Notes under the pieces: generated by a model
Database searches by the model: none
The model's input: only the letters and a program-made list of their open reading frames with translations
What the model was told of the DNA's origin: nothing
Made by a program: the position numbers and the translations under genes
Shown: in pieces, positions 1,064 to 56,341 of the stretch
Layout of the letters: every line of letters begins with the position of its first letter
How positions within the stretch are numbered: the first letter of the stretch is position 1
Assembly: GCA_963825135.1 (NCBI GenBank)
Contig: CAWGRW010000009.1
Coordinates: 1,481,410 to 1,545,409, forward strand
Direction of reading: 5' to 3'
From: an uncultured bacterium
GTDB lineage: Bacteria > Desulfobacterota_D > UBA1144 > Nemesobacterales > UBA2774
Length of the DNA stretch: 64,000 nucleotides

Positions 1064-2143
1064 TCATTCGACGTCTATGGAGGACGCGACTTTTCCCGTT
1101 TCAGGATTGTAAATATATTCCCCGCCCAGAGGGTGGGCCGGGAAATCCGTTGTTGTCTGCAGTTCTATGAATTTTCTGAGCTCGTCCATATTCTTCGGAT
1201 AATCACCGTATAGCTTATTATATCTGGCCGACTTTGCATTCAGAAAATTTATATCCTCATCGATCTTCCGCTTGGATAATTCCGAGCTTTTGATCGCCCC
1301 GATCTTGGGCGCCAGAATGAATTTGCCTCCCATCGGGGCCTCCGGAATCCCGTTTTTCAACACGCCGGCCCTGACCATGTCTTCGAGCCCGGAGGGGGGC
1401 TTTCCATAGGTTTTGACGTACTCGCGGAGGGACTCGGTCAGTTTGTCTTCGAGGGACATGGTATCTATCTCCTCTATATTTCTCAGAGCGAAGTTCCTTC
1501 TCCCTTCGCTCGGGCTCGTTTCGTAGATTATTTCCCAGATTTTCCTCGAAAGCTCCCTGTTCCCGCCCTTCGCATGGGCCGACGCGGCCATGCCCTTCAT
1601 CGAGGCTGCCCTCAATGGGGAAATGCCCGGCTTCTCGGACGCTTCCTTGAACAGCTCTGCCGACTTTTCGTAGTCCTTCGGGTAGAAATAGTATATAAAG
1701 GCTTCCTCCAGGGGCAGGTTGTAGTTCCCGGGGTTGTTCTTCCTCCCTTTGTCGAGGAGCTCTATCCCTTTCTTCGTCTCGCCGAGCCCGAAAGGCGGAG
1801 GTTCGGCCAGGAAAGTGCCTCCGTACCTGTATGCGTTTATGAACTTCGGGTCGAGATCCGTGATGATATCGAAGTAGTGATAAAGCAGGTCGGAGTTCAG
1901 GTCAGCGGGTTTCTCTCCGCCGAAGTACTGGAGCGCCCGTATCCAGTAAATGTCGGCCAAAATCTCATAATATCCCAGGGACAGCTTTTTCAGGGACGAC
2001 GAAGATATGTAGAGGCTCCCTTCGACAGACCGGAACTTGCCCCTTATTTCGTCTATCCTTATCTGAAACGGAATCGATACCGCTACCAGCACGGCCAGAA
2101 TGACGAGGGCGACAACAGGCTTTCTGGATGATATGACGGACAT
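1064..2143 (-). CDS. Hypothetical membrane-anchored protein with an N-terminal TM helix and TPR-like repeats. Last gene of the ABC-2 transporter operon.
   Basis: 359 aa, N-terminal hydrophobic helix (PVVALVILAVLVAVSIPF). A 4-nt gap to the upstream ABC-2 permease gene suggests co-transcription. I recognised no family. Confidence 0.45.
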   Translation of the reverse strand: MSVISSRKPVVALVILAVLVAVSIPFQIRIDEIRGKFRSVEGSLYISSSSLKKLSLGYYEILADIYWIRALQYFGGEKPADLNSDLLYHYFDIITDLDPKFINAYRYGGTFLAEPPPFGLGETKKGIELLDKGRKNNPGNYNLPLEEAFIYYFYPKDYEKSAELFKEASEKPGISPLRAASMKGMAASAHAKGGNRELSRKIWEIIYETSPSEGRRNFALRNIEEIDTMSLEDKLTESLREYVKTYGKPPSGLEDMVRAGVLKNGIPEAPMGGKFILAPKIGAIKSSELSKRKIDEDINFLNAKSARYNKLYGDYPKNMDELRKFIELQTTTDFPAHPLGGEYIYNPETGKVASSIDVE

Positions 2144-9540: not shown

Positions 9541-12500
9541 ATGACCCTCCTCAGGAACGGGTTAGCTAGAGTTCTTTTAATAATATCTCTCGTTGTTTGC
9601 ACTGTCCTCATTTTTCTCAACATATTCCTGGGCGGAAAAATAAGCCGGCTGGCGCCGGAATACCTCGACCGATTCTCAAGGCAGAGCGGTTTTACTCTCC
9701 GGGTTAATAAGGCGGGCCTCGATCCCCTTTTCAGGATCAGACTCGACGGGTTAAACGCCGCCGATCCGGCCGCCCCCGATAAACCGCTGGCCGAGATCGA
9801 AACCCTGACTATCGATCCGCGCATATTTTCCTCCCTCCTTTCCCGGAGCGTGAAAATCGGGGAAATAATAATAGACCGTCCCGTAGTAAGGTATGACGGC
9901 AAGAGCGCCGGCAGGATCATCGCCATGATAAGAGAGGGGGAGGGCGGCGGTAAAGGGTCACAGGTGGAGATCGGGAGAATAAGATTGAATGACGCCCGCG
10001 TCGAAGTCGGCCCCGGCTCCGCCTTTACTTCCGGGGCAATGGATATTCGAATCGCCGGGGAAAGGTCACGGAACGGATCGAGTATCGGGATCGTCGGCGA
10101 CGTTACAGTCTTCGGAAAGGGGATGAGCGTCGAGGGCTCCTTAGATTTAAAGCCAGGCGAAACGAGCGGGAAATTCAATATCGAGACGGATAAATTTCAG
10201 ATCGGCTCACTTCCGGGACCCTCTGAGGGGGCGGGGAATTTGAAAGGGGTACTCGAGCTCTCGTTCAGTGCGGCTGAAAACGTCCGGTCGCGGGGTGAAT
10301 TGACTGTTCGCTCGGACGATGAGGGGAGCGGGACCGGGCGCGCCGCGCTCGGGACGCTCAAGTACGGGCTTACGTATGACAAGGCGGAGGCCGCGGCTCA
10401 TGTGAGCGCTTTGAATTTCGACATGATGAACGTCTTGCATGGAAGTCTGAGCGGTGATGTAAAGAGTGTTACGGAAAACCCCGAATTCGATTTACACGGC
10501 TCCGCCCAGTCGAGCGATCTGAAGCTGCTGTCGAAGCTGGTTCCCGAGATAAAGGCTGATACAATCACCGGAAATTTACGGTCGGACAATTTAAGGGTGA
10601 GCGGTTCTATCGGGAAAAACAGCGTCGAGCTTACGGGAGGAGTTGCGCTCGACGGTATCGGCTTCGCCTACTCGGACGATAGTCTCAGTATTGCGGGATT
10701 AAACTGCGCTCTCGACGTTAAACAGGATATCGGCGGTGGATACGGTCTATCGTTCATATCACGGGGGCCGTGCTCCGTAGAAAAATTATCTCAGAAGGAT
10801 CTGGGCGAGGTAAACGGCATTTCGGCGGGAGTAGAGATTAAAGGGAGCGACCTCTGGAAGAGTAAGGAGCTCTTGTTCTCGGATCTGAACGGCATCTATA
10901 TGGACGGAGTTGTATCCGGCTCGTTCGGCCTGTCCGTAATTAACGGACGAAGCAAAATCGATGGGAGCCTCACGGGAGCGAACCTGAATCTGAAGAAGGT
11001 GCCCAAATCTTTAGTTCCTTTCGACCTGGAGGGCAGCGCCCGGTCCCTGTCCGCCGATATAGAAGGGAATCAGGGAGCCTACGAGGCGGGGGTCAGCTTC
11101 GCCGTAAGTGATTTGATAGTCAGGTCTAATACAGGAAGGGAGTTTAAGGTGTCGAAAGCCGGGTCTTCGGGTCCGCTCGATCTCGAGTACGTGGAGAAGG
11201 CGGCCGACGAGGGTAAAGAGGCCGAAAGGAAAATCAAAATAAACGGCAAAGGGCTCTCGTACGAGAGCCTCTCGTTCGGCGAATATTTTATCGAAGGGGG
11301 CAAGGTCGACGACCTCTCTTTCTCTCTCGATCCCGGCGGCGGCTGGGCCCTCAGTATGGCGTCACAGGGGAAGGGTTTTCAGGTGTCCGGCAGGGAAATA
11401 GGCCTCGAGCAGTTTAAAGAACATATAGAGATAGAAGACAGCGGAAGGAGAGGGTTCAGCGGCACGATCACCGGCACCGGAGGCAGATTCAAGAGTGTGA
11501 CGTTTCCGGAGCTGTCGGCCGAATACGTTTTCGGGGGGGACTTTCTCGATATACGGAAGCTGAGCACTAAAGTGAGCACGATAGGGGAGCTCAGGACAGA
11601 TGATTTGAGAGTCGAGTTCGGCGCCGGGAAGGGGGGCTACCCCTATACTATTAAACTCAATGACGGGGTATTCTCCGGATATGAGGATAAATTGAGGTCC
11701 GAAGGCATATCCGGAACCTTTGTCGTCAACGATCCGGAAACGAGTAAAACCGAATGGGAGGGAGCCGCGTCGGCGTTGAAAACCGATATATTCTCACAGG
11801 TCGTCGAGGGTCTTCATTTGACGGCTTCGCCTTCCCCCGACGGTATTCTTTTAAAAGACATCACCGGCAAGCTCCTGAACGGGGAGGTTAAAGGGAGGGC
11901 CGATATCGTTACCTCCGGTACCCCCGCCCGCATAATAACCGACATCGGTCTGAAAAATGCGTCCGTAAAGTCGGGCGATCTCGATATTGCGCTCGGTAGC
12001 GCGGATTTTGCTTTCTCGGGAACCGTTCCCGACGATTCCCTCCCGGAGGGTACGGGCAAACTGGAGTTCGATCGGCTGAATTTAAAGAAGCCGGTAATGG
12101 ACCTTGTTGACAGCGGTTCGGTAAACATTCGGACTTCGGGTGAAACATTATTCATCGAAGACGGGTTTATAAGAGATAAGGACAAGAGCGAGTTGAGATT
12201 CCTGGGAGAAATGGGAAATTCCCTTAGCGCGGACAGGAGGCTTGAGGTCGTTTTCCCCGACTTCGCCCTTGCAAGCGCAGTTAAATTCCTGTCGCCCCTG
12301 ATGCCGGTGACGATCAAGGAGGGACAGGTCTCGGGTACCGCGAGTTTTAATGTCGTGTTCAACAGGGTATTCGATGCGGGGAGCTCCTGGAGCGGCGGCC
12401 TCTCGTTCAAAGGCGCATCGTTTGCCGCTTATATAGGGGGAGCCGATCTTTCCTTGAGGGGAATAAACGGGTCCATAACAGTAAAAGACGAAGGGGAGGG

Positions 12501-13242
12501 CGGAAACGCCCTGGCGTCACTCGTCGGCAATGCGCTCACTCTCGATAAAGAGGTCTATAAGGAGTACCTGCGCTCGTTCAAGGAGCCGGCCCCGGATACT
12601 GGGGCCGATCATATTAAAATCGACGGGATTGAATACGGGATATTGAAATTCGAGAACGTCGAATGCTCGCTCGAAGCCGACAGGGGCAAGATCGGGATAA
12701 TAAAGCTCGCCGCCGGTTTCTTCGGCGGGAATCTCTACGCAAACGGGGTCCTTAACCTGGGCGGAGCCGAGAGTGTTTATAATTTCTCATTCCTCTTTAA
12801 CGATATCAGCCTCGACGCTATTTCGAAGCGGCTGTCGCCGTCCGAGGAATATATAACGGGGAGGTTAAACGGTCTCGTCTGGCTCACGGGGGAGGGAGGG
12901 GACCTGAACACCATAGACGGCCCCTTCGAGTTCTGGTCAATCAGCTCCGCGAAAGAACCCAGGTCCATCGGCAAGGCTCTTCTCGATAAGCTCGGAGCGA
13001 AAGAGAGACTCATCCTGGGCTCCTCGCGCAGCTATGATAACGGTGAGATTTCAGGTTATATTAATGACGGCGTAATAACGTTCAAAAAGTTTAATATTTC
13101 TAATTCGATTCTTGGAATTAGGAACCTGTCGATTCAGGCGGACCCGGTGAAGAATTCGATCTCCATCGCGCACCTTGCGTCCGTGATAAGGGAAATCGCG
13201 AGAAGGTCGCAGTCGGGCGGTCCGACGATAGAAACTCAATAA
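9541..13242 (+). CDS. AsmA-family large envelope protein (YdbH-like)
   Basis: 1233 aa; single N-terminal TM helix (VLLIISLVVCTVLIFLNIFLG) followed by a long repetitive beta-rich region, as in AsmA/TamB/YdbH proteins. Immediately followed by a DUF1318-like lipoprotein gene, as in ydbH-ynbE-ydbL. Confidence 0.65.
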   Translation: MTLLRNGLARVLLIISLVVCTVLIFLNIFLGGKISRLAPEYLDRFSRQSGFTLRVNKAGLDPLFRIRLDGLNAADPAAPDKPLAEIETLTIDPRIFSSLLSRSVKIGEIIIDRPVVRYDGKSAGRIIAMIREGEGGGKGSQVEIGRIRLNDARVEVGPGSAFTSGAMDIRIAGERSRNGSSIGIVGDVTVFGKGMSVEGSLDLKPGETSGKFNIETDKFQIGSLPGPSEGAGNLKGVLELSFSAAENVRSRGELTVRSDDEGSGTGRAALGTLKYGLTYDKAEAAAHVSALNFDMMNVLHGSLSGDVKSVTENPEFDLHGSAQSSDLKLLSKLVPEIKADTITGNLRSDNLRVSGSIGKNSVELTGGVALDGIGFAYSDDSLSIAGLNCALDVKQDIGGGYGLSFISRGPCSVEKLSQKDLGEVNGISAGVEIKGSDLWKSKELLFSDLNGIYMDGVVSGSFGLSVINGRSKIDGSLTGANLNLKKVPKSLVPFDLEGSARSLSADIEGNQGAYEAGVSFAVSDLIVRSNTGREFKVSKAGSSGPLDLEYVEKAADEGKEAERKIKINGKGLSYESLSFGEYFIEGGKVDDLSFSLDPGGGWALSMASQGKGFQVSGREIGLEQFKEHIEIEDSGRRGFSGTITGTGGRFKSVTFPELSAEYVFGGDFLDIRKLSTKVSTIGELRTDDLRVEFGAGKGGYPYTIKLNDGVFSGYEDKLRSEGISGTFVVNDPETSKTEWEGAASALKTDIFSQVVEGLHLTASPSPDGILLKDITGKLLNGEVKGRADIVTSGTPARIITDIGLKNASVKSGDLDIALGSADFAFSGTVPDDSLPEGTGKLEFDRLNLKKPVMDLVDSGSVNIRTSGETLFIEDGFIRDKDKSELRFLGEMGNSLSADRRLEVVFPDFALASAVKFLSPLMPVTIKEGQVSGTASFNVVFNRVFDAGSSWSGGLSFKGASFAAYIGGADLSLRGINGSITVKDEGEGGNALASLVGNALTLDKEVYKEYLRSFKEPAPDTGADHIKIDGIEYGILKFENVECSLEADRGKIGIIKLAAGFFGGNLYANGVLNLGGAESVYNFSFLFNDISLDAISKRLSPSEEYITGRLNGLVWLTGEGGDLNTIDGPFEFWSISSAKEPRSIGKALLDKLGAKERLILGSSRSYDNGEISGYINDGVITFKKFNISNSILGIRNLSIQADPVKNSISIAHLASVIREIARRSQSGGPTIETQ

Positions 13243-13255
13243 ACGAGGTGAAATA

Positions 13256-13933
13256 ATGGATAGGCGTATATCGAGGGTCCTGCAGTCTTCTCTTTTCATT
13301 CTAACGCTCTATTCCTTGTCCTGCGCGACTATTACCGTCAACGTGTATTTTCCGGCGGAAGAGGTCAGGGAGGCTTATTCGAACCTGGAGGACGAGTTCC
13401 TCGATCAGGGCTCAAAGGGTAACGCCGGTTCCGAGAAAAAACAGCCGGTCGAAAACAAACCCGCGCCCTCGCCCTCACCGTCCCCTCAGAGTATGAGAAA
13501 GTATCAGGACAAGCCGGCTCTCTCGTCGGAGAGGAAATATCTCGTAATCAAAAAAGAGATATCACTCGATTTCAGCGACTATGCCTGGGCTCAGGGCAAT
13601 ATAGCCCAACAAATCACCCAGAAGATACGCAGCATGCCGGATGTTATCCAGGCTTATAAGCGGAGGTCCCAGCGCCTGGGCGAAATAAATCAGATGCTCT
13701 CTCAGGGTCTCGTCGTGGAAGGCAACCAGGGGCTGCTCATTCAGAAAGGCAGTCTAGCCCCGGGGCAGACACAGGCCCTCAACGCGGAGAACGCCGACCG
13801 TCAGGTGATTATCAGGGGGATGGCGAAGGCGATAGTGGAGATTAATAACATAGACCCCACGCCTGAAAATATAGATAAGGTGCTCCCTGAGGCAGCAAGG
13901 CAGTTCGCGAGCGTGAGGCAGAGCGAGAGGTAG
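13256..13933 (+). CDS. Lipoprotein with a C-terminal DUF1318 (YdbL-like) domain
   Basis: Lipobox LYSLS|C, a Pro/Ser-rich linker (PAPSPSPSPQ), and a C-terminal …QGLVVEGNQGLLIQKG…NAENADRQVIIRGMAKAIVEIN… resembling the YdbL/DUF1318 motif (GxVGE…GYL…N..R..IY..IA). Confidence 0.5.
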   Translation: MDRRISRVLQSSLFILTLYSLSCATITVNVYFPAEEVREAYSNLEDEFLDQGSKGNAGSEKKQPVENKPAPSPSPSPQSMRKYQDKPALSSERKYLVIKKEISLDFSDYAWAQGNIAQQITQKIRSMPDVIQAYKRRSQRLGEINQMLSQGLVVEGNQGLLIQKGSLAPGQTQALNAENADRQVIIRGMAKAIVEINNIDPTPENIDKVLPEAARQFASVRQSER

Positions 13934-14163: not shown

Positions 14164-15417
14164 ATGCGCCCGAGAATAGTTCTCCTGGCCGTCATAGCAG
14201 TGTTAACCGCCTTTGCTCCTCTTACGTCGGACGCAAAGAAGTTGTTTGTCGCCAATATAAAAGTCGATGACGAGGTGGAATTCGAGGGCACGGACAGTCT
14301 TTTCAAGGTCGTCGATTTTTTTGACAACAAATCGCTCAAGGAATTCTTCCCGGATTACACGTCGAATTCCGCCGTATTGGCGAGGGTCGATCTGAGGGGG
14401 ATCGATCTCGAAGTAGAGTATCATCAGAATTCGTCGGTCCTTATCGTCAGGATACCTTCAAAAAATTTCGAAGTCAGATTCGAGGGGGCAAACCGCAACC
14501 AGAGCCAGGAGCAGTTCGAGGACTGGCTCAAAGGCGATTTCGAATCCCTTACGGCTCCGAGCGGGAAGCTTACGACGCTCCTCCACATAGTTGTGGCGAA
14601 CTCCCCTGTCGAGCCCGTCGCGGGGAACCCGAACAGTCTTCTGACCAGGATGTTCCTGTCCGATTTCAACGCGGGCATAACAGGGCCCTTTATCAGCTCC
14701 GGAAAACGCGTGGAGGGGAATCAGAACTTCCTCACGCTCGGCGGAGAGTTCGGATTCTTCAACGCGGGCCCTTACGACGGCCAGGTGCTGAATTTCCCGA
14801 TAAATTACAAGTGGAATTTCAAAGGGTGGCCGAAGCTCTCGTGGATATTCGACCTCCCCGTAACGCTTACGAGGGACGAGACGGGGTGGGCTTACATGGC
14901 TTCCTTCGGCACGGGCTTCCAGTTCAGGCCTTACAAATGGTGGAGCATCACCCCGATGGGTCGTATAGGCGGGGTCGGTTCTTTCGACGTGGGGGCGCTG
15001 GCGGTTCTGGTTTCGGGGAGTCTTACGAATTATTTCCAGGGCAGTATCGGCTCCACGAACCTCGGCTTCGGGACGATGACGGGCATATCGACTACGATAG
15101 ACGGGATCAAGGTGGGGGGTTACGACCTCAGCTACGAGCTTACGAATTACGTGCTCCGTAACGGCGGCAACCTGACTCAGAAGCTCAATTTTAATTTCCT
15201 CGGGAACCCCGCGGCGTTCAAGCTCTTCCTTAACCACACGAAATTCTGGGGCAACGAGCTCTACCTGAATTCCTTTTTCGATATGGGGCTCGCATTCGTA
15301 ACGATAAAGAAGGTCGCGGATTCCTTCGTGGAGGCGCTCGACCTTTCGTTCACGTTCTCCGCGGGCGTCGATAACGACTACAACAATTACAGCATTCAAT
15401 TGACTTACCGTTTCTGA
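14164..15417 (+). CDS. Outer-membrane beta-barrel protein (hypothetical)
   Basis: Signal peptide MRPRIVLLAVIAVLTAFAPLTSDA. Alternating-hydrophobic beta-strand pattern in the C-terminal 250 aa. Terminal …QLTYRF (aromatic-x-Phe OMP signature). Confidence 0.55.
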   Translation: MRPRIVLLAVIAVLTAFAPLTSDAKKLFVANIKVDDEVEFEGTDSLFKVVDFFDNKSLKEFFPDYTSNSAVLARVDLRGIDLEVEYHQNSSVLIVRIPSKNFEVRFEGANRNQSQEQFEDWLKGDFESLTAPSGKLTTLLHIVVANSPVEPVAGNPNSLLTRMFLSDFNAGITGPFISSGKRVEGNQNFLTLGGEFGFFNAGPYDGQVLNFPINYKWNFKGWPKLSWIFDLPVTLTRDETGWAYMASFGTGFQFRPYKWWSITPMGRIGGVGSFDVGALAVLVSGSLTNYFQGSIGSTNLGFGTMTGISTTIDGIKVGGYDLSYELTNYVLRNGGNLTQKLNFNFLGNPAAFKLFLNHTKFWGNELYLNSFFDMGLAFVTIKKVADSFVEALDLSFTFSAGVDNDYNNYSIQLTYRF

Positions 15418-18084: not shown

Positions 18085-19047
18085 TTAAGAGGCCGGTTTA
18101 ATGTTTTCCTTGACTACCCTCAGAAAATTACCGCCCATGATTTTTCTCACTCTGCTCTCGGAGTATCCTTTCTTCTGGAAATAATCAGCTATCTTCGGCA
18201 GGTCCGCGATCCTTCTCAGGTCTTCGGGGAAGTCCTCGATCCTGGCCCCGTCCATGTCGCTCCCAATGCCCACGTGGTCCTCGCCGCAAAGATTGACTAT
18301 ATAGTCCGCATGCCTGAACACGTCTTCCACCGTGGGCGTGCTATCCCCCGTCCTGAGGAACTGGTTATAGAGCACGATCCCGATGACTCCCCCTCTTTCC
18401 GAGATAGCGAGGAGCTGGTTGTCTTTCAGGTTCCTCGGGTGCTCGGTGAGCGACCTCGCGTTTGAGTGCGAGGCTATGGGTATGAGACTCGTGAGCCGTA
18501 TCGCTTCCCAGAACCCCTTTTCGTTGATATGAGAGAGGTCGAGCGTGATATGGAGCTCGTTCATTCCCTTTATCAGCTCCCTCCCCTCGTCCGTGAGCCC
18601 TTCTTCGGTCTCGTTCCCCGAGGCGTATCGGTTCTTATCGTTCCATGTAAGCCCTATCAGCCTCACTCCCCGTTCGTAGAATTCACCGAGCTTGTCAGGG
18701 CCTTCAATCGGGTCAGCACCCTCCACGAGCGTAAGGAACCCGGTTCTCCCGTCGGAGCCTGTACTCATGAGGTCCTCACGCGTCTTTATCTGAAAGACTT
18801 CGTCTTTATGCTCTTTATAAATCCTGTCGTATGTGTCGAACTGACGGAGCGCCGATTCGAGCGTCTTTTCCGGCTTGTGTTTAGGGTGTACGAATATTGT
18901 ATTGAATACGAGACGGATGTTGGCTTCTTTCATCCAGGGGAGTGTGATCATGCAGGGTACGGAGGGGCTAACGAAGTCCCTGTCGTAGTAGTTTAAATGG
19001 AACGCGATGTCTTCGTGCGCGTCGAGTATGAATAAATCCTTAAGCAC
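18085..19047 (-). CDS. Membrane dipeptidase (peptidase family M19, renal dipeptidase-like)
   Basis: N-terminal ILDAHEDI zinc-binding motif, …IASHSNARSL…, …HVGIGSDMDG… are typical M19 motifs. 320 aa. Confidence 0.8.
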   Translation of the reverse strand: MLKDLFILDAHEDIAFHLNYYDRDFVSPSVPCMITLPWMKEANIRLVFNTIFVHPKHKPEKTLESALRQFDTYDRIYKEHKDEVFQIKTREDLMSTGSDGRTGFLTLVEGADPIEGPDKLGEFYERGVRLIGLTWNDKNRYASGNETEEGLTDEGRELIKGMNELHITLDLSHINEKGFWEAIRLTSLIPIASHSNARSLTEHPRNLKDNQLLAISERGGVIGIVLYNQFLRTGDSTPTVEDVFRHADYIVNLCGEDHVGIGSDMDGARIEDFPEDLRRIADLPKIADYFQKKGYSESRVRKIMGGNFLRVVKENIKPAS

Positions 19048-19098: not shown

Positions 19099-20340
19099 CT
19101 AGATATAAAACCCCATGCTCGCGTAACTCACTACCGACCCCGTATCCGGCTCGAGCGCCTGCCCGTAATCGAGCAGCTTACCCCTCTCCGCGTCGATCGC
19201 CGCGAGCGTCGCGTATATAGGTGAGAGCCCGCAGACCTTCCGCCAGTCCTTCTCCTCCTCGACGGAGCGGTAAAACCCCTCGGCGTCCATCTTCTCGCCG
19301 AAGGAGAGGCTCAGCATGTCTCTTTCTCTTATCTTGCCGAGCGTGAGATCGTTTACGGGTTCTTTGTCCCCGAACTTGAGCCCCACGTGGGCCATGTCCG
19401 CCCCCGCGATTATAAAGACGTTATCGCCCGTATCCCTTACGATCCCCGCGACCGCTTCGAGAAAGACGGATATGTATTCGTCCTCGGCCGGCGATCTGCC
19501 GTCCATGACCAGTCTGTAAAACGAGTTGCAGAGTACGGGCACTATTTTGTATTTCTTTTTTCCGTTCAGCATATGCTGAAGGAACGCGACCTGGAACTCT
19601 ATCGAATGCTCGGTACGGTGCGAGATCTCGCCATCATACAAATCCCATCCGCACGCTCCTTCGAGCTTCTCGATTATCTTCCTGTCCGTTTCAGCTTCCC
19701 CGAGGGGCGTCATAAAGTTCTTTCTGGTCAGGATAAACGGGTTTTCCACTTCGGCATAATGAGAGGTGCCGAAGATAATAAATGTATCCGCTTCGTTTTC
19801 CCGAAGCAGTTCCCTGTATGCGAGCGCGTACGATACACCGCCCCTCCCGTAGTCGATATGAGGGGAAATCAGCCCCCGTAACTTTCCGGGGGTTTCTTCA
19901 TAGGGCCGGCTCTCTTCCGCCTTGCCGAAAAAGGCCTTAAACCATCTGTCGAGCTCCTTCGGGTCACCGGGGTACGACAGGCCCGCGTGGCTCGACTCCC
20001 TCGTCACCGCTTCCCGGAAACCGGATTCAAGCCGGTGCTTATAGTCCCTGAAATTTTCGCTTTCGAGAAAGAGCGCTTCGTCGAGCTGTTCTATTAAATC
20101 CTCTATTTCGTCCGATAGCACAAGCTCCCCGAACCTCTCCATGCAGAGCGACTGAATATCGCGGACGGTCTTTGTCCCGTCGAAGAGGCTCAATATCCTG
20201 AGAGTATCTATCGGGACTGCGAGGATCTTATCCGACAGGTTCTGCGGGTCCCTCAGGCATATGATCCTCTCCCCTTCGACCTCCGCGGGGACGGCCTCGA
20301 CGTATCTCAGTCTCGGATATTCAAGAGTTTTATCGGTCAT
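19099..20340 (-). CDS. Fusion protein: N-terminal PqqD-like RRE (peptide-recognition) domain plus C-terminal MEMO1 / AmmeMemoRadiSam system protein B-like domain
   Basis: N-terminal residues about 15-110 (…RYVEAVPAEVEGERIICLRDPQNLSDKILAVPIDTLRILSLFDGTKTVRDIQSLCMERFGELVLSDEIEDLIEQLDEALFLE) align motif-for-motif with PqqD (LNETAAxILELxDGxRxVxxIIxxLxERF…VxEFLxxL). The C-terminal part carries Memo-family motifs (SHAGLSYPG, ISPHIDYGRGGVSYA, IFGTSHYAE, AGADMAHVG). Start set at M8 so that ATG overlaps the upstream HyuB stop (ATGA coupling). Confidence 0.65.
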   Translation of the reverse strand: MTDKTLEYPRLRYVEAVPAEVEGERIICLRDPQNLSDKILAVPIDTLRILSLFDGTKTVRDIQSLCMERFGELVLSDEIEDLIEQLDEALFLESENFRDYKHRLESGFREAVTRESSHAGLSYPGDPKELDRWFKAFFGKAEESRPYEETPGKLRGLISPHIDYGRGGVSYALAYRELLRENEADTFIIFGTSHYAEVENPFILTRKNFMTPLGEAETDRKIIEKLEGACGWDLYDGEISHRTEHSIEFQVAFLQHMLNGKKKYKIVPVLCNSFYRLVMDGRSPAEDEYISVFLEAVAGIVRDTGDNVFIIAGADMAHVGLKFGDKEPVNDLTLGKIRERDMLSLSFGEKMDAEGFYRSVEEEKDWRKVCGLSPIYATLAAIDAERGKLLDYGQALEPDTGSVVSYASMGFYI

Positions 20341-21905
20341 GCGTTTTTTGGTCTCCCCCACCCGCCCCCGCCGGGCGTCCTGATTTCGAGCACGTCCCCT
20401 TTGCTTACCGCGAACGTTGACTTGGGAGGTATAACGGATGATTTCCCCTTTCTCAAGAGGGTGTTCCTGCCTCTCATTCCCCGCCCTCCGCCTTTAATGC
20501 CGTAAGGCGCCGATTTCCTGCGCTCGGTTATGAGAGAAACGGTCGCGTCCGTGAGGAACCTGTACTTCCTGACGATGCCGTCTCCCCCCCTGAACCTTCC
20601 GCCGCCTCCGCTGTTTTTACGTATGGAATACGCATCTATCATGACGGGGAGCTCCCTCTCGAGCGCCTCAATCGGGGTATTGAGTGTATTGGTCATATGC
20701 GTCTGGACGGCGCTCACGCCGTCCTTCCCGTACCTCCCGCCCATGCCGCCCGCGATGGTTTCGTAGTAGGCGAAGTTCCTGCCGTTCCCGGGGTTCACCC
20801 CCCCGAACGTCGTATTGCTCATGGTGCCCGCGCTCGCCGCCTGGATCTTTTCGGGGACGGCTTTTGAAAGCGCTCCGAACACAATATCGACGACGCGCTG
20901 CGAGGTCTCTACGTTTCCCCCGACTACCGCCGCCGGGAATTCGGCATTTAATATGGAGCCCTTTTCAGCTTTGATATCTATTACCCTCAGCGGCCCCGAG
21001 TTAAGCGGCATGCCTTCCGGGGCAATGCACTGAAATGCATATACAGTAGCTGCTGTCGTCACGCTGAAGGGTGCGTTCAAACAGCCCTTCACCTTCTCGG
21101 ACGACCCTCTGAAATCCACGACCGCTTTTTCTCCTTTAATGCTTACGGAAACCCTTAGAGGTATATTCCTGGTCCCCGCCCCGTCGTCGTCGAGGACGTC
21201 TTCGAACGTATAAACCCCGTCGGGAATATTGTCGATAACATTCCTCATCATTTTTTCGCTGTACCCGAGGAGCCCCTCAGCCGCTTCTTTTATCTTTTTT
21301 AGCGAGTACTTCGCGGTGACTTCCTTTAACCTTCTTATCCCGAGTTCGAGCGAGCCTGACTGCGCCCTCAGGTCTCCTTCCCTTTCTTCCGGGTCGCGCG
21401 AAGCGGACAGGATGCCTTCAAAGAGAGACCGGTTCAGCTTCCCTTTCTTATATAGTCTCGACGGGGGGATCAAAATCCCTTCTTCGTGTATCGATGTGGA
21501 CAGCGGCATCGAGCCCGGCGTGAGGCCCCCCATGTCCGCGTGGTGGGCGCGTGAGGCGACGAAGAATTCAAGCGTGCCGTTTACCATTACCGGCGCTATG
21601 CATGTGACGTCGGGCAGGTGTGTCCCGCCCCTGAATGGGTCGTTAAGTATGAAGACGTCTCCCTCCGCTATCCCCGGCTCTCCGATAATCGCTTTCACCG
21701 CGAAGCTCATCGAGCCCAGGTGTACGGGGATGTGCGCCGCCTGCGCGATCATTTCCCCCGTGGCTTTGAATATCGCGCAGGACAGGTCTCTCCGCTCCTT
21801 TATATTGGGCGAGAACCCGGCGCGTATGAGGACGACCCCCATTTCCTCGGCGATCGAGCTGAGCGCGTTCTGAAATATTTCGAGTTCGAATGGGCTAAGG
21901 GGCAT
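20337..21905 (-). CDS. Hydantoinase B / oxoprolinase B family protein (HyuB-like); no HyuA partner in the window
   Basis: Classic HyuB motifs: …IAQAAHIPVHLGSM…, …GDVFILNDPFRGGTHLPDVT…. 522 aa. Confidence 0.85.
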   Translation of the reverse strand: MPLSPFELEIFQNALSSIAEEMGVVLIRAGFSPNIKERRDLSCAIFKATGEMIAQAAHIPVHLGSMSFAVKAIIGEPGIAEGDVFILNDPFRGGTHLPDVTCIAPVMVNGTLEFFVASRAHHADMGGLTPGSMPLSTSIHEEGILIPPSRLYKKGKLNRSLFEGILSASRDPEEREGDLRAQSGSLELGIRRLKEVTAKYSLKKIKEAAEGLLGYSEKMMRNVIDNIPDGVYTFEDVLDDDGAGTRNIPLRVSVSIKGEKAVVDFRGSSEKVKGCLNAPFSVTTAATVYAFQCIAPEGMPLNSGPLRVIDIKAEKGSILNAEFPAAVVGGNVETSQRVVDIVFGALSKAVPEKIQAASAGTMSNTTFGGVNPGNGRNFAYYETIAGGMGGRYGKDGVSAVQTHMTNTLNTPIEALERELPVMIDAYSIRKNSGGGGRFRGGDGIVRKYRFLTDATVSLITERRKSAPYGIKGGGRGMRGRNTLLRKGKSSVIPPKSTFAVSKGDVLEIRTPGGGGWGRPKNA

Positions 21906-21968: not shown

Positions 21969-22430
21969 TTATTCCGGCTGGGGCGCGGAAGGCGTCATGG
22001 TTTCCAGGTTCGAGTATCTGCATAGCTCGGAGGCGTAGTACCTTACCCGGGTGCTTTCCCCGAGATCTGCCTTCGGGCTTCCCGGAATGATGTGACTGCC
22101 GTTCTTGCATTCCTGCGCGACCTTTAGAAACGGCACCGGCGCAAGGTCGCCCGGTCCGTATTTGCCCTTTATGTTCTTTTCTACTTTCACGGTAGCGTTA
22201 CATTTCGACACCGTCTCGGGAATAAAATCCGCTGCGCCTTCGTCGGACGCTCTGCATTCTCCCGAATCGTAAGGCTTCCCGCATTCGATTTTCACGACCG
22301 TCCCCTCGACTGCGTAATCGGAGCTATTGAGGAGATCCTCCCGGGAGCAAGGGGGCGGGATAGCGCGGACGCTTACCGCTCCGATAGCGAATAAAGTAAA
22401 AATGAGTGGTATTATTAACTTGTTTTTCAC
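21969..22430 (-). CDS. Secreted cysteine-rich hypothetical protein
   Basis: Signal peptide MKNKLIIPLIFTLFAIGAVSVRA; 6 Cys in the roughly 130-aa mature part. No family recognised. Confidence 0.45.
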   Translation of the reverse strand: MKNKLIIPLIFTLFAIGAVSVRAIPPPCSREDLLNSSDYAVEGTVVKIECGKPYDSGECRASDEGAADFIPETVSKCNATVKVEKNIKGKYGPGDLAPVPFLKVAQECKNGSHIIPGSPKADLGESTRVRYYASELCRYSNLETMTPSAPQPE

Positions 22431-22521
22431 CCTGATTATACTAATGTATTGTGCTTTTATTCGTTGTCAAACGAAATCTTCAAAGCGGAGAAATTTGGCA
22501 TGCAAGGGGACGATAAATAGA

Positions 22522-23473: not shown

Positions 23474-24343
23474 TTAGCTTATCGCCTCTTTCAGGGTCTC
23501 CCCCATCTCTGCAGGGCTCGGGCATACCCGCACCCCCGCTCTTTCTAGCGCCGCTACCTTGTCCTTGGCGCTTCCCGAGCTTCCCGATATGATCGCCCCC
23601 GCGTGTCCCATCCTTTTCCCTTTGGGGGCGGTCGCTCCGGCTATAAACGCAACTACGGGTTTTGACATATGGCTCTTGATGAATTCGGCAGCTTCCTCTT
23701 CCGCGCTTCCGCCGATCTCGCCTATCATCACTACAGCGTCCGTATCCTTGTCCTTTTCAAATAGCTTCAATATGTCGATGAACGTCGAGCCGATTATAGG
23801 GTCTCCGCCAATCCCGACGCTTGTGGACTGCCCTATGCCGAGGTTGGACAGCTGCCATACGGCCTCATAAGTGAGCGTGCCGCTGCGGGAGATAATGCCT
23901 ATTCTTCCGGGCGTGTGTATGTATCCGGGCATAATGCCTACCTTCGCTTCGCCGGGCGTCATCACTCCGGGGCAGTTGGGCCCCACGAGACGCGCCTTCT
24001 TGCCCTTCAGGTACTCCTTTACCTTAATCATGTCCTGCGTCGGGACGCCTTCGGTGATACATATTACGAGCTCGATCCCGGCGTCTATAGCCTCCACCAT
24101 CGAATCCATCGCGAACGGGGCGGGTACGAATATAAGAGACGCGTTAGCCCCGGTCTTTTTGACTGCGGCCGCCACTGTGTCGAATACGGGGAACCCCTCG
24201 ACCTCTGTCCCGCCTTTCCCCGGCGTGACTCCGCCCACGACCTTCGTGCCGTATTCGCGGCACTGTGTGGCGTGGAACAGGCCCGCGCTCCCGGTAATCC
24301 CCTGAACTATTACTTTTGTATTTTTATTGACCAGGATACTCAT
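23474..24343 (-). CDS. sucD: Succinyl-CoA synthetase alpha subunit (SucD-like CoA-binding / ligase-CoA protein)
   Basis: …[12 protein letters not shown]…, …[20 protein letters not shown]…, catalytic His region …[13 protein letters not shown]…. No sucC adjacent. Confidence 0.8.
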
Positions 24344-26052: not shown

Positions 26053-27333
26053 ATGAAAATTAGAGAACCGGTGATCCTGCTTACTTTACTCTTCATAGCC
26101 TCGATTTCGTTAAGCCTCGGAGTCCCGAGGAATTTCGGCAGCGAAATCGGATTTGTGAACGATTACGGTGACAAACTTGTCTATGCCGCCAGGGGTTCCT
26201 GGTACCCGTACTCGAATAATCCATATACGGATATCCCGAGCGAATATCCCCAGGCCGCTACCTATTTCTTCGCCGTGCCTTATATGGTATTGGGCTCTCC
26301 GGGTTCTTTCGACACGCACCTGATCGCGCAGATCGAGCGCTTTGTTAACAGCAATCCTCAGACTAATCCCAACCTGCCGTCTTCTCCGCATCTCAGGAAC
26401 AGGCTCTTCATGCGCTATTCGCTCGTCTTTTCGCTGCTCATGGTCCCGTTCCTATTCTTTTCGATACTGATCGTTTACAACCTGAGGCCCGAAAGGAAGT
26501 ACCTCGCATACCTCATGCTCCTTCCGGCCGGGCTATTCTTTACCCACAACAGGTTCGATATAATTCCCGCTTTCCTCGGACTTCTGGCCGTTTTCCTGCT
26601 TTCAAAAAACAGATTCAAGCTGTCGGCGTTCGTAATAGCGTTCGGGTTTCTTACGAAGTGGTACCTCGCGCTCCTGCTTCCCGTATTTCTCGCCTACTAT
26701 TACACTCAGAGGAGAAAAATCAACTGGCCGATGGTCCTCGTCTTCGCGGTAACCTGCCTGGCTGTCCTCGTTCCTACTTTCCTGGCAGGCGGCCTGAACG
26801 GGCTCTTCGCTCCTTATATCGCCCAGCTCTCCCGCGACCTTGACCAGCCGTCCTTGTTTTTCCTCGTGTCCATGCTTCTCGACCGGGGCTTCGGTCTAGA
26901 TATCGACAATTTCTATCTCGCGGCCGCGTCGCTCGCACTTCAGTTCTCGGTGATACCGCTCTGCGTGACGAGCAGGGTCGATTCCCTGGACAAGGTGATC
27001 AGGTGGTCATCGTTATCCATTCTGGTGTTCATCATATTCGCCCGGATAAATTCTCCGCAGTGGATTTTGTGGGTCAGTCCCATGCTTATCTTGATTGCGG
27101 GCAGGGGGATGTTCATAGCGGGCATTGTCCTCCTCGACCTGCTGTCCTACATCCAGTTCCCCGTGCTCTTTTATCTCCGCTCTTACAGCGAGTCGTATTA
27201 CAATCTCTTCCTCCTGGCGTTTTCAGTCAAGCTCGCATTACTTATCTTGTTCGCCGTTTATCTATTCGGGGGCCTGATAGGGGATAATCCGGTTTTCGCC
27301 CGCCTGCGGGGCCGGAAGGCGGATCAGTCCTGA
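26053..27333 (+). CDS. Polytopic membrane protein, GT-C-fold glycosyltransferase-like (DUF2029/GT87-like)
   Basis: 426 aa with more than 10 TM helices and a conserved loop region (…DIIPAFLGLLAVFLLSKNRF…). Resembles PIG-M/GT87-type mannosyltransferases; tentative. Confidence 0.45.
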   Translation: MKIREPVILLTLLFIASISLSLGVPRNFGSEIGFVNDYGDKLVYAARGSWYPYSNNPYTDIPSEYPQAATYFFAVPYMVLGSPGSFDTHLIAQIERFVNSNPQTNPNLPSSPHLRNRLFMRYSLVFSLLMVPFLFFSILIVYNLRPERKYLAYLMLLPAGLFFTHNRFDIIPAFLGLLAVFLLSKNRFKLSAFVIAFGFLTKWYLALLLPVFLAYYYTQRRKINWPMVLVFAVTCLAVLVPTFLAGGLNGLFAPYIAQLSRDLDQPSLFFLVSMLLDRGFGLDIDNFYLAAASLALQFSVIPLCVTSRVDSLDKVIRWSSLSILVFIIFARINSPQWILWVSPMLILIAGRGMFIAGIVLLDLLSYIQFPVLFYLRSYSESYYNLFLLAFSVKLALLILFAVYLFGGLIGDNPVFARLRGRKADQS

Positions 27334-47684: not shown

Positions 47685-50600
47685 ATGCGTTCGAAAGTCC
47701 TAAAACCTATATTTATATTTCTTCTGTTGCTGCTTTTATTGTCCGCTGTAATCGTTCTAATAATTCAGACCCATTACTTCAGGCAGTTCGTCAAGATCAC
47801 GACCAACGCCATCGTCAGCACCCTTACGGCCCAGGATTTCACAATCGGGAGCATTGAAGGCAATTTTCTTAAAGGCATGACCCTCAGGAACGTTTCTTTC
47901 CAAATAGGGAAAGAGAAGTTCGTCGATTGCGACGAGATTTACATAGATTACTCCCTCCCCCTTATACTCGACGGCTCGATGCTCTTCAGCAAGGTGATCC
48001 CGCTTCACGAAGTCAGGATGACGGGTATCCGGATAAATCTTGTCCATTACAAGGACGATACATGGAATTTTCAGGAGTTTCAGAAGTTAATGATGAAAGA
48101 AAAAAGGCCTAACCCCGACTGGAACATCTTTATCCAGAACGGTTCTATCGTGGACGCGGAAATGACGATCGAGGACGAGGCCAGGGGGGAGAACTCGATC
48201 TTCGAGCTGTCGAATGCGGATTTATCCTTGAACATGTTCAAGATAGCCGACAAAGCGGAGCTTGATCTTCGTGACGCTCATCTGACGGTCGCCTACGAAA
48301 GCATGAATTATGAAAAACTGTATTTTGAAAACATAAAGGGCAAGGCCGTATATTCGAACAAGGAGCTGCCCGATAAGTTCGATGTCGAGAGCCTCGTTTT
48401 CAATTATCTGGGCGCGGCGGTTTCGGGAAAGGGGACCATAATCAATATGATGGACCCGAAGTTTAGCCTGAAGGGGGTCATAAACGGTATCGACATCCCC
48501 GACGTCGGGACCCTCAACCTCGATATTGAGGCGCAGGGTAGTTCCTTTCAATGGAGGGATTTGCACGCTACGGGGAAGATGAGGCTCAGGGACTCTTCGG
48601 CGCTGCAGAGCGGTCTCACGGGCGGGGTCGAGTCGGTCGCCGTGGAGAACACGCACGTAGCATTAAATAAAGGCAGCCTGAGCGCAAGCTTCGGGGACGC
48701 GTCGTTTGACGGAACCATCGATCTTCTGGAGATGAGCGACAGGGCAAAGTATAACCTGGCGGACATACGGCTCGACCTCCGGTCTCTCAAGGTCCCACGG
48801 GTCCTGGAGCTTGTGGAGAAAAGAAACGGTCCTCTCGGCGAGGGTATCAACAAAAATATAGACGCGGTTATCAATTCGAAGCTGAAAGTTACAGCCGGAT
48901 GGAGCAGGTCCCGCGAGTTTACAGCCGGGCTGGATATAGGCGAAATGAGCTTAACCGGCGGAGGGGTCGGGGAGATCAAGCTAAAAGGCCCTGTATCGCT
49001 CGCGGGCTCGAAAATAGATTACGATCTGGACGCGGGCTTCCTCAAGACGAATTTCGCTCCCTTGCTTAATGATGAAAAGTACAGGAGCGATTTTAATTCG
49101 GATCTCAAGATTAAAGGGTCTTTGAGCACCGCCGAGGTCTTTCCCAAGGGCTTTGAGGTTGCGTTGCGCGGCGAGGCGGGGGCTTCAAAGATATTCGACC
49201 TGAATCTAAAAAGAGCAGTCGTGGATACGAGTTATAACGGAACATCGATCGATATCAGATCCCTTGTCCTGGAGTCCGAGCCCTTTAGCATGAATGCATC
49301 CGGCCGGCTCGGCAGCACCGGCGGAGAAGGCGTCAAGTACGAGATAAACGTAAAGAACCTCAATTTCCTCTCGAAACTCGCGCCCGCTCATCATGTCGGG
49401 GGGAGCCTCGGCCTCAGCGGCCGCATCGAGGGGAGTTTTCAGAACCCTAACATCATCGTTGACGTCACAGGCTCGGATATTACGTATGAGGAAATGCGGT
49501 TGAGGATGAAGAAGATCGAATTGAGCGCGCGCAGCTTTCTCGATATCAACGACCTGAAATTCAAAGCGGCCGCGGAAGTGAAGGGGATAGACGTGCAGGG
49601 CAGGGAAATCCAGACGGTCAATTTCAAGGCCGGGAGCAGAGGCGGCGAAATAGACGGGACGTTCGACGTACAGGAAACCGCGAAAAGGAAATATTCCTTT
49701 GATTTTAATATCAGGGATCTCGGCAAAGAGGAAACGAAGCTTGAGCTGGATAATGTCGTCATGAATTTCAGAAATGCCGTTTTTAAAAACCGTAAGCCCG
49801 TTCTTATTTCATTGTTCAAGGATAGAGTGAAGGTGAGTTCCTTCAACCTGTATCATAAAGATAACTTTATGGTCGGGGATCTCGTTCTCGGTTTCGACGA
49901 GAGCGTGGACGGATCGGTCAGGCTCGAAAAATTAAGCCTCCTCGACGCATCCGAGCTGTTGGGCATAGAATTCCCGGTAAAGGGCCAGATGACGGGAGAA
50001 ATAAAATTAGGTTCTTCGCTCAAGCATCCGGACTTGAGGGCCGATATCATGGTGAAGAACCTCGAGTATATGAAATTCAAGAGCGACGAGCTCAAGCTCT
50101 CGTTCTTTTTCTCCGATAATAAAATGGGCCTCGATTTGAAGATATGGGGCGGAAAGGAAGAGATCCTTTCCGCGGTTTGTGACGCGAAGCTGAATTTCGA
50201 TCCCGAGAATATCGATAAAAGCATCAGAGAGGCCGAGTATAGAGCGGTAATAAAATCGAAGGGAGTCGATATAAGCCCGCTGGCCATCTTCAATGAAGAG
50301 ATTCAGGAAATAAACGGGAAGCTTCTAGTGGACATCGTCGCCGAGGGAACGGGGGTCGATCCCAACGTCACCGGCAGTCTCGAGCTCCGGGATATGACTA
50401 TGAAGATACTGGCGCTGCGTAATAAAATTCACATAGATAAGGCGATCATGGATATGACCGGGAAATACGGAAAGCTCCGCCCCGCCATAATCGATACAGG
50501 CGGGGGAGAAGGGGTCTTCGAGGGCAGCGTAGATTTCCGGGACCTCTCATACACGGGTAAGGGGAAAATGTCCGGCCTGCTCGTAAAAACATATCCGGCT

Positions 50601-51578
50601 GAAGTTACCGCGAACCTCGACGGCGATCTGGAGGTGCAGGGGAAATTCATGAACGCGTCGATTAAAGGGAGCATCACGGCGAACAATGTCAAAGTCACTG
50701 TACCCGACAAACCCCTTAAGGAGATCGAGAACATAAAATTTATCGACGAAAAAGATGCGGACAAGGAAGAGTTCATATTCACAGGAGAGAAAAAAGAGGA
50801 TTTTGTCGAGGAGTACATTGCGCTTGACCTCAGCCTCGATATTCCCAAGGAATCGCGGGTAAAGGGCGCGGGTGCGAACATCGAGGTCGAAGGGAAGCTC
50901 GACGTCGATAAGAACTATAATGAGCCTTACACCATCTCGGGGAATATTGATGTCATAAGAGGTGATTACCAGTTCATGGGCAGGCTCTTCAAGATTGAGA
51001 ACGGTACGGTGAGCTTCAGAGGGAAGGATATCGCGGATCCGTTCCTCGACCTGCGCGCGACGTATGAGGTATCGGGCGTGGAGGTCTATATTAACATCAC
51101 GGGCACTGCGGAGAAACCGAGGATTCAGCTTTCGAGCGACCCTCCGCTCGATGAAAACGAAATAGTGTCCTATCTCGTGTTCGGCACTTCGTCGGAGACG
51201 CTCGGTACGGACGAGAGGGTGCAAATTCAGGAGAAAGCGGGAGAGGTTTTGGGCACGATGGCGGTGGGCGAGCTGAGGGAAGCCCTCGGCGAAGAGCTTG
51301 CCATAGACGTGATGACCATCAAGGGCGGCCAGACCGGGTTCAGGGACACTCACCTCGAGATAGGCAAATATCTGACAGACGACCTCTACATAGGGTATGA
51401 GCGGTTGTCTTATGAAAGGTATTTCTACGAGCGTTATTTCTTCAGTCCGGGTCTTCCTTCGTCCACAGTCACGGCCAACAGGGCCGTCATCGAATACAGG
51501 GTGTTCGATTTCCTGACGCTCGAGAGCGAGATAGGCGAGCAGGCGGGAGCCGACGTCTTTTTCAATTTCGACTATTGA
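47685..51578 (+). CDS. tamB: Translocation and assembly module subunit TamB-like (AsmA family, C-terminal DUF490)
   Basis: 1297 aa; N-terminal TM helix (PIFIFLLLLLLLSAVIVLII); C-terminal DUF490 signature (…GNIDVIRGDYQFMGRLFKIENGTVSFRG…DPFLDLRATYEVSGVEVYINITGTAEKPRIQLSSDPPLDENEIVSYLVFG…). No tamA adjacent. Confidence 0.8.
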   Translation: MRSKVLKPIFIFLLLLLLLSAVIVLIIQTHYFRQFVKITTNAIVSTLTAQDFTIGSIEGNFLKGMTLRNVSFQIGKEKFVDCDEIYIDYSLPLILDGSMLFSKVIPLHEVRMTGIRINLVHYKDDTWNFQEFQKLMMKEKRPNPDWNIFIQNGSIVDAEMTIEDEARGENSIFELSNADLSLNMFKIADKAELDLRDAHLTVAYESMNYEKLYFENIKGKAVYSNKELPDKFDVESLVFNYLGAAVSGKGTIINMMDPKFSLKGVINGIDIPDVGTLNLDIEAQGSSFQWRDLHATGKMRLRDSSALQSGLTGGVESVAVENTHVALNKGSLSASFGDASFDGTIDLLEMSDRAKYNLADIRLDLRSLKVPRVLELVEKRNGPLGEGINKNIDAVINSKLKVTAGWSRSREFTAGLDIGEMSLTGGGVGEIKLKGPVSLAGSKIDYDLDAGFLKTNFAPLLNDEKYRSDFNSDLKIKGSLSTAEVFPKGFEVALRGEAGASKIFDLNLKRAVVDTSYNGTSIDIRSLVLESEPFSMNASGRLGSTGGEGVKYEINVKNLNFLSKLAPAHHVGGSLGLSGRIEGSFQNPNIIVDVTGSDITYEEMRLRMKKIELSARSFLDINDLKFKAAAEVKGIDVQGREIQTVNFKAGSRGGEIDGTFDVQETAKRKYSFDFNIRDLGKEETKLELDNVVMNFRNAVFKNRKPVLISLFKDRVKVSSFNLYHKDNFMVGDLVLGFDESVDGSVRLEKLSLLDASELLGIEFPVKGQMTGEIKLGSSLKHPDLRADIMVKNLEYMKFKSDELKLSFFFSDNKMGLDLKIWGGKEEILSAVCDAKLNFDPENIDKSIREAEYRAVIKSKGVDISPLAIFNEEIQEINGKLLVDIVAEGTGVDPNVTGSLELRDMTMKILALRNKIHIDKAIMDMTGKYGKLRPAIIDTGGGEGVFEGSVDFRDLSYTGKGKMSGLLVKTYPAEVTANLDGDLEVQGKFMNASIKGSITANNVKVTVPDKPLKEIENIKFIDEKDADKEEFIFTGEKKEDFVEEYIALDLSLDIPKESRVKGAGANIEVEGKLDVDKNYNEPYTISGNIDVIRGDYQFMGRLFKIENGTVSFRGKDIADPFLDLRATYEVSGVEVYINITGTAEKPRIQLSSDPPLDENEIVSYLVFGTSSETLGTDERVQIQEKAGEVLGTMAVGELREALGEELAIDVMTIKGGQTGFRDTHLEIGKYLTDDLYIGYERLSYERYFYERYFFSPGLPSSTVTANRAVIEYRVFDFLTLESEIGEQAGADVFFNFDY

Positions 51579-56339: not shown

Positions 56340-56341
56340 AG

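Follow-up and report, generated by a model that had tools for sequence, protein, structure and literature searches.

What does a Memo-family protein do when a domain of the kind that recognises peptides is built into its N terminus? The question was raised by one gene on a stretch of 64,000 nucleotides from an uncultured bacterium (contig CAWGRW010000009.1, positions 1,481,410 to 1,545,409; hereafter the window), which comparison of homologs placed in a Dadabacteria-like lineage. The gene encodes a protein in which a predicted recognition element for ribosomally synthesised peptides that carry post-translational modifications (RiPPs), or RRE, precedes a Memo domain with its metal ligands. We found that this fusion recurs across many bacterial phyla, usually alone and with no conserved gene cluster around it. 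The reading that we put forward, with about even confidence, is that of a stand-alone two-domain metalloenzyme, in which the tail of a peptide or protein, encoded at some other place, would be held by the RRE for the Memo domain to act on. The gene and the parts on which this reading builds are as follows.

19099..20340, minus strand: coding sequence of the RRE-Memo fusion, 413 aa plus the stop codon at 19099-19101 (from the list of open reading frames (ORFs), with codon check)
20302..20325, minus strand: conserved segment before strand 1, residues 6-13, consensus PKLRxxEA (cross-phylum alignment)
20065..20301, minus strand: RRE/PqqD-like winged-helix domain spanning residues ~14-92, predicted to have three strands ahead of three helices
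20011..20058, minus strand: linker helix joining both domains, residues 95-110 (full-chain AlphaFold2 model; 95-111 in the model of the excised domain)
19102..20001, minus strand: Memo-family domain with the LigB-superfamily fold, residues 114-413
19858..19860, minus strand: codon of His161, equivalent to MEMO1 H49 (phmmer alignment, invariant, codon checked)
19759..19761, minus strand: codon of His194, equivalent to MEMO1 H81 (phmmer alignment, invariant, codon checked)
19231..19233, minus strand: codon of Cys370, equivalent to MEMO1 C244 (phmmer alignment, invariant, codon checked)

The fusion is not a product of faulty assembly of the reading frame. The best 120 database homologs were colinear with the protein, about 405-425 aa long and 59-94% identical to it. 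An earlier interpretation of the window, made from the letters alone (the sequence-only reading), had cautioned that a frameshift might have joined two genes; this was excluded, since about 120 of the 120 best homologs are colinear full-length proteins, and the RRE-Memo fusion is a genuine conserved architecture. Its ATG at 20338-20340 shares bases, in the sequence ATGA, with the TGA that ends the upstream Hydantoinase_B gene, and an in-frame alternative start, GTG at 20361, lies 21 nt farther upstream. Because the nearest relatives begin at the equivalent methionine or a few residues downstream of it, the ATG is the likely start.

The architecture is also widespread. When a profile of the N-terminal domain (N-domain) was searched against 1.84 billion cluster representatives (50% identity clusters), 1597 clusters were matched at E<=1e-3, of which 783 reached E<=1e-10. 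The best-scoring 150 clusters were fusions of about 400-445 aa or fragments of such fusions. No stand-alone N-domain was seen in this search, in which the short database matches were truncated fusions. One cluster, P0153 (986 aa), carried the N-domain and the first ~30 Memo residues followed by ~850 unrelated residues with weak TPR matches; it may be an assembly chimera or else an architecture of another, rare kind, and it was left out of the analysis. A species scan with one genome per GTDB species gave at least 573 confirmed relatives in more than 15 phyla. The best 80 of these were all full length and all came from metagenome-assembled genomes (MAGs) of Thermodesulfobacteriota/Dadabacteria, Syntrophia, Acidobacteriota, Planctomycetota (including Brocadiales), Verrucomicrobiota, Methylomirabilota/Rokubacteria, Nitrospinota, Spirochaetota, Omnitrophota, Sumerlaeota, Poribacteria, Tectomicrobia, Gemmatimonadota, Latescibacterota, Binatia and Armatimonadota. 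The protein is well conserved across many phyla, at ~40% identity, and both of its domains are under purifying selection across phyla.

The C-terminal part was recognised as a Memo domain by several routes. The profile search proposed beforehand gave a full-domain match above the gathering threshold, with residues 116-409 matching Pfam Memo PF01875 at 152.6 bits (cut-off 27; E 1.6e-44) over profile positions 2-268 of 269, and the same model matched 21/21 cross-phylum relatives. All the motifs by which the domain had originally been noticed were found in place, namely SHAGLSYPG (117-125), PHIDYG (160-165), GTSHY (191-195) and ADMAHVG (314-320). The NCBIfam model TIGR04336 (AmmeMemoRadiSam system protein B) matched residues 114-409 with 125.8 bits against a cut-off of 26. 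A full-chain AlphaFold2 model, built from 30 homologs, reached a mean predicted local distance difference test (pLDDT) of 87.9 and a predicted template modelling score (pTM) of 0.85, and its C-terminal domain had the MEMO1-type fold of the Memo family. The predicted structure thus bears out the two-part fold expected from the sequence, an N-domain in RRE order and a MEMO1-like domain of the LigB superfamily.

Human MEMO1 (PDB 3BCZ, 7KQ8), to which the protein has modest sequence similarity (phmmer E 6e-10), differs from it in being eukaryotic and in having no N-terminal RRE. The iron/copper ligands of MEMO1 are H49, H81 and C244 (PMC11081632), and in a phmmer alignment to 7kq8 they align with H161, H194 and C370 of the fusion protein. 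All three, along with H245, D315 and H318 (MEMO1 H131, D189 and H192), were invariant in a 21-sequence cross-phylum alignment. Because the MEMO1 ligands align to invariant residues, the 2-His-1-Cys metal site of the Memo domain is taken to be intact. The LigB class III extradiol dioxygenases (LigAB, DesB, aminophenol dioxygenase, DOPA dioxygenase and YgiD) were 9-17% identical to the fusion protein, and their third ligand is a Glu where the fusion protein has Cys370, which leaves it without the 2-His-1-Glu site of that group. No dioxygenase activity of Memo proteins is known (PMC11081632), and many of the host lineages would seem to be anaerobic, judging from the titles of the species-scan records. 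A simple LigB-type ring cleavage is disfavoured on account of the Cys ligand, the lack of MEMO1 dioxygenase activity and the many anaerobic hosts; an O2-dependent reaction of this type is not the obvious guess.

The N-domain was assigned mainly by its predicted structure. The model of the excised domain (pLDDT 89.2) has strands at 15-21, 24-30 and 39-43, followed by helices at 46-50, 59-70 and 76-88, which is the order demanded of an RRE by the RRE-Finder authors (PMC12710340) and gives the three-strand, three-helix winged-helix fold of an RRE. In structural comparison the best matches were solved RRE-leader complexes, and ordinary DNA-binding winged helices scored 5 or less. Good scores were also obtained for the RRE-like domains of lysine methyltransferases (7.6 for 5doo and 6.2 for 8hkr) and for the JmjC hydroxylases MINA53 (7.0) and NO66 (4.6). 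The domain holds the conserved motifs CLRDP (28-32) and FDG (53-55), with L29, D31 and G55, as well as P9 of the PKLRxxEA segment, invariant across phyla in the 21-sequence alignment. R12 of that segment is nearly invariant, and a short DSSP bridge lies at residues 10-11.

In its sequence, the N-domain has a resemblance to PqqD that is real but weak. The sequence-only reading had described a motif-for-motif match over ~110 residues; a resemblance does exist, but it is limited to helices 1-2 and is weak in this particular sequence. An hhalign comparison of a 22-N-domain profile with an approximate Klebsiella pneumoniae PqqD sequence gave a weak match over 29 columns (P 0.0011, probability 20%), to the PqqD stretch LFDG..TV.DI...RF. 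In known RREs the PqqD-like LFDG motif sits in the helices flanking the peptide groove. The Pfam PqqD model PF05402 matched 11 of 22 N-domains of relatives at E<=1 (best 2.5e-6) and reached E<=0.01 in 4/21 cross-phylum members, and several database homologs of the fusion protein carry a precomputed PF05402 match. With this model the resemblance is significant in some relatives; the window protein itself stayed under the threshold.

The same structural data bear on a different reading, which we regard as possible though on the doubtful side: the N-domain may be a structural, dimerisation or partner-docking module (for instance for a radical-SAM or AMMECR1-type protein encoded elsewhere), or a gate of the Memo site, with the Memo domain handling a small molecule or serving, as has been proposed for MEMO1, in the binding or delivery of a metal. 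In favour of this, the similar winged helices of MINA53, NO66 and the lysine methyltransferases come close to true RREs in score. The pTM of 0.85 suggests a fixed arrangement of the two domains, in which the N-domain would be rigidly packed on the Memo domain. MEMO1, in turn, is described as a binder of iron/copper for which no catalysis is known, and in its crystals glutathione lay close to the metal (PMC11081632). Against this, the LFDG motif lies in the groove-flanking helices of known RREs, and the N-domain was never lost in hundreds of diverged lineages, which fits an essential role although not necessarily substrate binding.

The architecture had already been described, contrary to what the sequence-only reading supposed. 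Bregman et al. (mSystems, November 2025), who looked through the AlphaFold database for RRE folds, named Memo-like (PF01875) RRE fusions (PMC12710340); Table S1 of that paper lists a new precision-mode hidden Markov model, RREFam044 "Memo_RRE", with no function, chemistry, substrate or context given. Like Memo_RRE, the protein studied here joins an RRE fold to a PF01875 domain and is found by structure rather than by a PqqD model, and it is of this catalogued type, with membership resting on architecture. What is new here relative to PMC12710340 is the breadth of the family (at least 573 species) and its lack of a conserved cluster. A full-text literature search returned, beyond Bregman et al., no paper linking Memo-like proteins to RiPPs. 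AmmeMemoRadiSam was met in single passing mentions, in papers whose titles and abstracts point to other subjects than the system itself.

To what system, then, does the gene belong? The context census covered 86 loci from more than 15 phyla, 76 of them outside the Dadabacteria-like lineage. The loci of Acidobacteriota, Planctomycetota and Verrucomicrobiota had nothing in common with the window or with one another, and when ORFs lying within 6 kb were clustered all against all, no family was present in over 12 of the 76 non-Dadabacteria loci. Among 118 immediate same-strand neighbours, a Pfam census gave Peptidase_M20 (9), DUF434/DUF5616 (5), UPF0047 (4), DUF59 (FeS_assembly_P; 4) and Lon (3). 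Every recurrent neighbour, whether M20 ArgE/DapE, DUF434/DUF5616, UPF0047, SufT-like DUF59, Lon or URO-D-like, was confined to one lineage. No conserved small ORF (20-75 aa within 2.5 kb of the gene) was found other than same-lineage or antisense artefacts. Radical-SAM and AMMECR1 genes were found neither in the window nor in the Pfam-annotated loci L001-L006, and they were absent from the families common to at least two of the 118 neighbours. The fusion gene is usually alone, without a conserved gene cluster. The suggestion of the sequence-only reading, that of the catalytic core of a peptide-modification system, found no support in this context: the 86 loci had no conserved neighbour or precursor-like ORF, and the radical-SAM partner for which that reading proposed to look was seen in none of the places just named. 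Nor was a precursor peptide or a RiPP tailoring gene, of the kind sought beside an RRE, conserved in these loci. As for AmmeMemoRadiSam, the model of component B (TIGR04336) matched and databases name the homologs accordingly, but this model excludes the RRE, and no AMMECR1 or radical-SAM partner was found in the window, in L001-L006 or among the shared neighbour families.

Two facts of the census would also suit a docking or gating N-domain, namely that no precursor or partner gene is conserved nearby and that Fe-S- or metal-related neighbours occur in a few lineages, such as the SufT-like DUF59 in 4 loci. This protein (99 aa, PF01883) is encoded directly upstream, ~300 nt, in L054, L068, L074 and L082 (Binatia and deltaproteobacterial MAGs), and PF01883 is the other unexpected RRE fusion partner named in the 2025 RRE-Finder paper (PMC12710340). 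One further locus, L081 (DATIWG010000012.1, labelled Nitrosotalea sp.), is an archaeal-binned contig with the gene order M20, fusion and DUF1285-like, which was otherwise seen in Rokubacteria/Methylomirabilota only; it is probably a mis-binned bacterial contig.

In the window itself the fusion gene does stand in a compact unit, whose other members are listed here.

18085..19047, minus strand: M19 membrane-type dipeptidase, 320 aa, 51 nt downstream of the fusion gene (PF01244, E 6e-85)
20337..21905, minus strand: Hydantoinase_B/oxoprolinase family gene, 522 aa, upstream and translationally coupled through the ATGA overlap (PF02538, E 4.5e-205)
21969..22430, minus strand: 153-aa protein with a signal-peptide-like N terminus and several cysteines, probably the first gene of the unit
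22443..22470, minus strand: promoter-like site TTGACA-16-TACATT upstream of the 153-aa gene (consensus scan 10/12, pattern match only)

The site at 22443..22470 is a candidate promoter of the four-gene unit, within which no terminator-like site was found on the minus strand and the gaps measure 51 and 63 nt. The 153-aa protein had no match in Pfam and NCBIfam searches, and its homologs, 42-59% identical, were found only in 9 Dadabacteria-like loci, where they head the fusion's gene unit. Hydantoinase_B adjoins the fusion in 9/86 loci and an M19 dipeptidase lies near it in 10/86, all of the Dadabacteria-like lineage; none of the three neighbours was present in the 76 loci of other phyla. The whole unit recurs in ten related loci, and the genes around it (IDH, SucD, YicC, epimerase, DapB, TGT and SecDF) are kept equally well. 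Because these flanking housekeeping genes are conserved to the same degree in the same ten loci, the recurrence is inherited lineage synteny and not a mobile cluster. The operon neighbours were considered as functional partners and rejected, since they accompany the fusion only where conservation extends to all of the 20-kb housekeeping neighbourhood.

These observations decide most of the case for a classical RiPP maturase, served by a clustered precursor and by Hydantoinase_B, M19 and the 153-aa protein as accessory enzymes, which we now hold to be very improbable. Such a maturase would agree with the predicted RRE fold, with four tightly packed same-strand genes joined by an ATGA overlap behind a single promoter-like site, and with the persistence of the unit in 9-10 related genomes; the RRE-Finder authors, moreover, treat such fusions as RiPP leads (PMC12710340). 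However, that persistence is shared by the flanking housekeeping genes in the same 10 genomes, and the three neighbours do not accompany the fusion in the 76 loci of other phyla. There is no conserved small ORF and, with gaps of 51 and 63 nt, no room for one inside the unit, and no RiPP-typical protease, transporter or radical-SAM gene was found in the context searches. The maturase is thereby largely refuted by the context census. PqqD and the RREs, discrete or fused, that belong to RiPP pathways (TfuB1, TbiB1, PbtF, TigE, LynD and NisB) differ from the RRE of the fusion protein, which has a Memo domain as its catalytic partner and no adjacent precursor or RiPP enzyme.

The identity of the neighbours also invites the idea of a metabolism of small peptides or of gamma-glutamyl compounds and dipeptides, in which the protein would work with Hydantoinase_B (oxoprolinase-like) and M19, these two processing products, and its Memo domain would bind a ligand resembling metal-glutathione. 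The fusion gene is translationally coupled to Hydantoinase_B and next to M19, an M20 ArgE/DapE-type deacylase gene lies immediately upstream in 9 Rokubacteria/Methylomirabilota loci, another part of the window encodes a GGACT-domain protein, and glutathione was found beside iron in crystals of MEMO1 (PMC11081632). Yet the gene associations are confined to single lineages and the neighbours differ between lineages, the M20 neighbour resembles any other ArgE/DapE enzyme, no Hydantoinase_A partner was found in the 64-kb window, and the fused RRE would be left unexplained, so that we consider this idea improbable. Hydantoinase enzymes normally act as A/B pairs. A solo Hydantoinase_B without Hydantoinase_A is also kept in nine related genomes.

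We therefore return to the stand-alone two-domain metalloenzyme, which builds on what was shown, namely both folds, metal ligands and a fusion that are conserved, and a gene with no conserved cluster around it; peptide binding, the identity of the metal and catalysis are what we infer beyond these. By analogy with the complexes of RRE and leader that have been solved, a linear segment of a peptide or protein would dock on the N-domain (~14-92), adding a strand next to strand 3 (39-43) and lying against helix 3 (76-88). In the model, a rigid helix (95-110) would connect it to the Memo domain, where the site of H161, H194 and C370, with H245, D315 and H318 nearby, may bind Fe(II) or Cu(I) in the manner of human MEMO1. 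The Memo domain would then act on the substrate so tethered, at a residue presented to the metal centre. That the enzyme acts on a peptide is reasonable to expect from its fold and the analogy with RREs. The gene, though well conserved over many phyla, usually stands alone and keeps no constant neighbours; its substrate is therefore most likely encoded elsewhere in the genome, for example as the tail of a cellular protein or as a small peptide of dispersed origin, and less likely as a RiPP precursor in a cluster. Modification of a cellular protein has precedent, because RRE-like domains occur in enzymes acting on ribosomal, outer-membrane and histone proteins. A more far-reaching version, to which we give a low probability, would make the RRE-Memo proteins housekeeping post-translational modifiers of many uncultivated phyla and not RiPP enzymes, with the RRE gripping a conserved cellular protein by a loop or tail, or else a dispersed small protein, and the 2-His-1-Cys metal centre modifying it.

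Several results weigh against the peptide-directed metalloenzyme. Unlike PqqD, the fusion protein stayed below the thresholds of the PqqD models of Pfam and TIGRFAM: PF05402 gave 12.8 bits for the full protein (E 0.15) and 15.4 bits for the excised domain (E 0.023) against a cut-off of 23.4, and TIGR03859 gave 14 bits (E 0.035) against 46. A sequence-profile search of the PDB with the N-domain returned EF-hand and other noise (E>0.04), by which RRE membership can be judged neither way. No peptide ligand or substrate candidate was identified in the context census. MEMO1, from which the metal chemistry is borrowed, is itself without demonstrated enzymatic activity (PMC11081632). Finally, ~60% of the RREs in the 2025 census lie beside or are fused to known RiPP genes (PMC12710340), and the analogy with RREs is weakened because the fusion gene, unlike these, has no adjacent known RiPP genes.

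The remaining window consists of housekeeping genes, including those for H+-pyrophosphatase, CstA, PheS, GyrB, NuoG/H, DapF and TamB-like proteins, among others. A SucD-like succinyl-CoA synthetase alpha gene (23474-24343, minus strand) has no beta-subunit gene beside it, likewise in L001-L003 and L010-L013. At 55089-57388 (plus strand) an Amidohydro_1 gene is directly followed by the gene of a 348-aa protein, whose first 124 residues are GGACT/AIG2 gamma-glutamyl cyclotransferase-like and whose other ~220 residues are unmatched. Two very large AsmA/TamB/YhdP-like envelope proteins are encoded on the plus strand at 9541-13242 (1233 aa) and 47685-51578 (1297 aa). Four ORFs had no Pfam match at the thresholds used: 26053-27333 (plus strand, 426 aa), 1064-2143 (minus strand, 359 aa), 14164-15417 (plus strand, 417 aa) and 13256-13933 (plus strand, 225 aa); the position of the 417-aa and 225-aa ORFs is conserved in related genomes.

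The sequence-only reading was therefore partly supported, being right on the architecture and plausible on a peptide-directed function, and wrong on novelty and on the surrounding system. For the mining of RiPPs the family is a caution: here is an abundant group of RREs, in at least 573 species, without a recognisable cluster, so that the presence of an RRE alone is no mark of a biosynthetic gene cluster. The automatic name "AmmeMemoRadiSam system protein B" may likewise mislead, as the partners that it implies were not seen near the fusion genes. The fusion protein belongs to a recently catalogued, functionally uncharacterised kind, and its interest lies in what Memo proteins do and in the abundance of an RRE family around which no gene cluster is seen. 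Human MEMO1 was originally identified through its binding to a receptor tail peptide. Conservation of the Memo family extends from bacteria to humans, and that one large bacterial branch should have a peptide-recognition domain built in strongly hints at peptides or proteins as what Memo domains act on. If RRE-Memo proteins were indeed housekeeping modifiers, the ancestral job of Memo and MEMO1 would be a peptide-directed metallo-chemistry, and the bacterial proteins would offer a handle on the function of human MEMO1.

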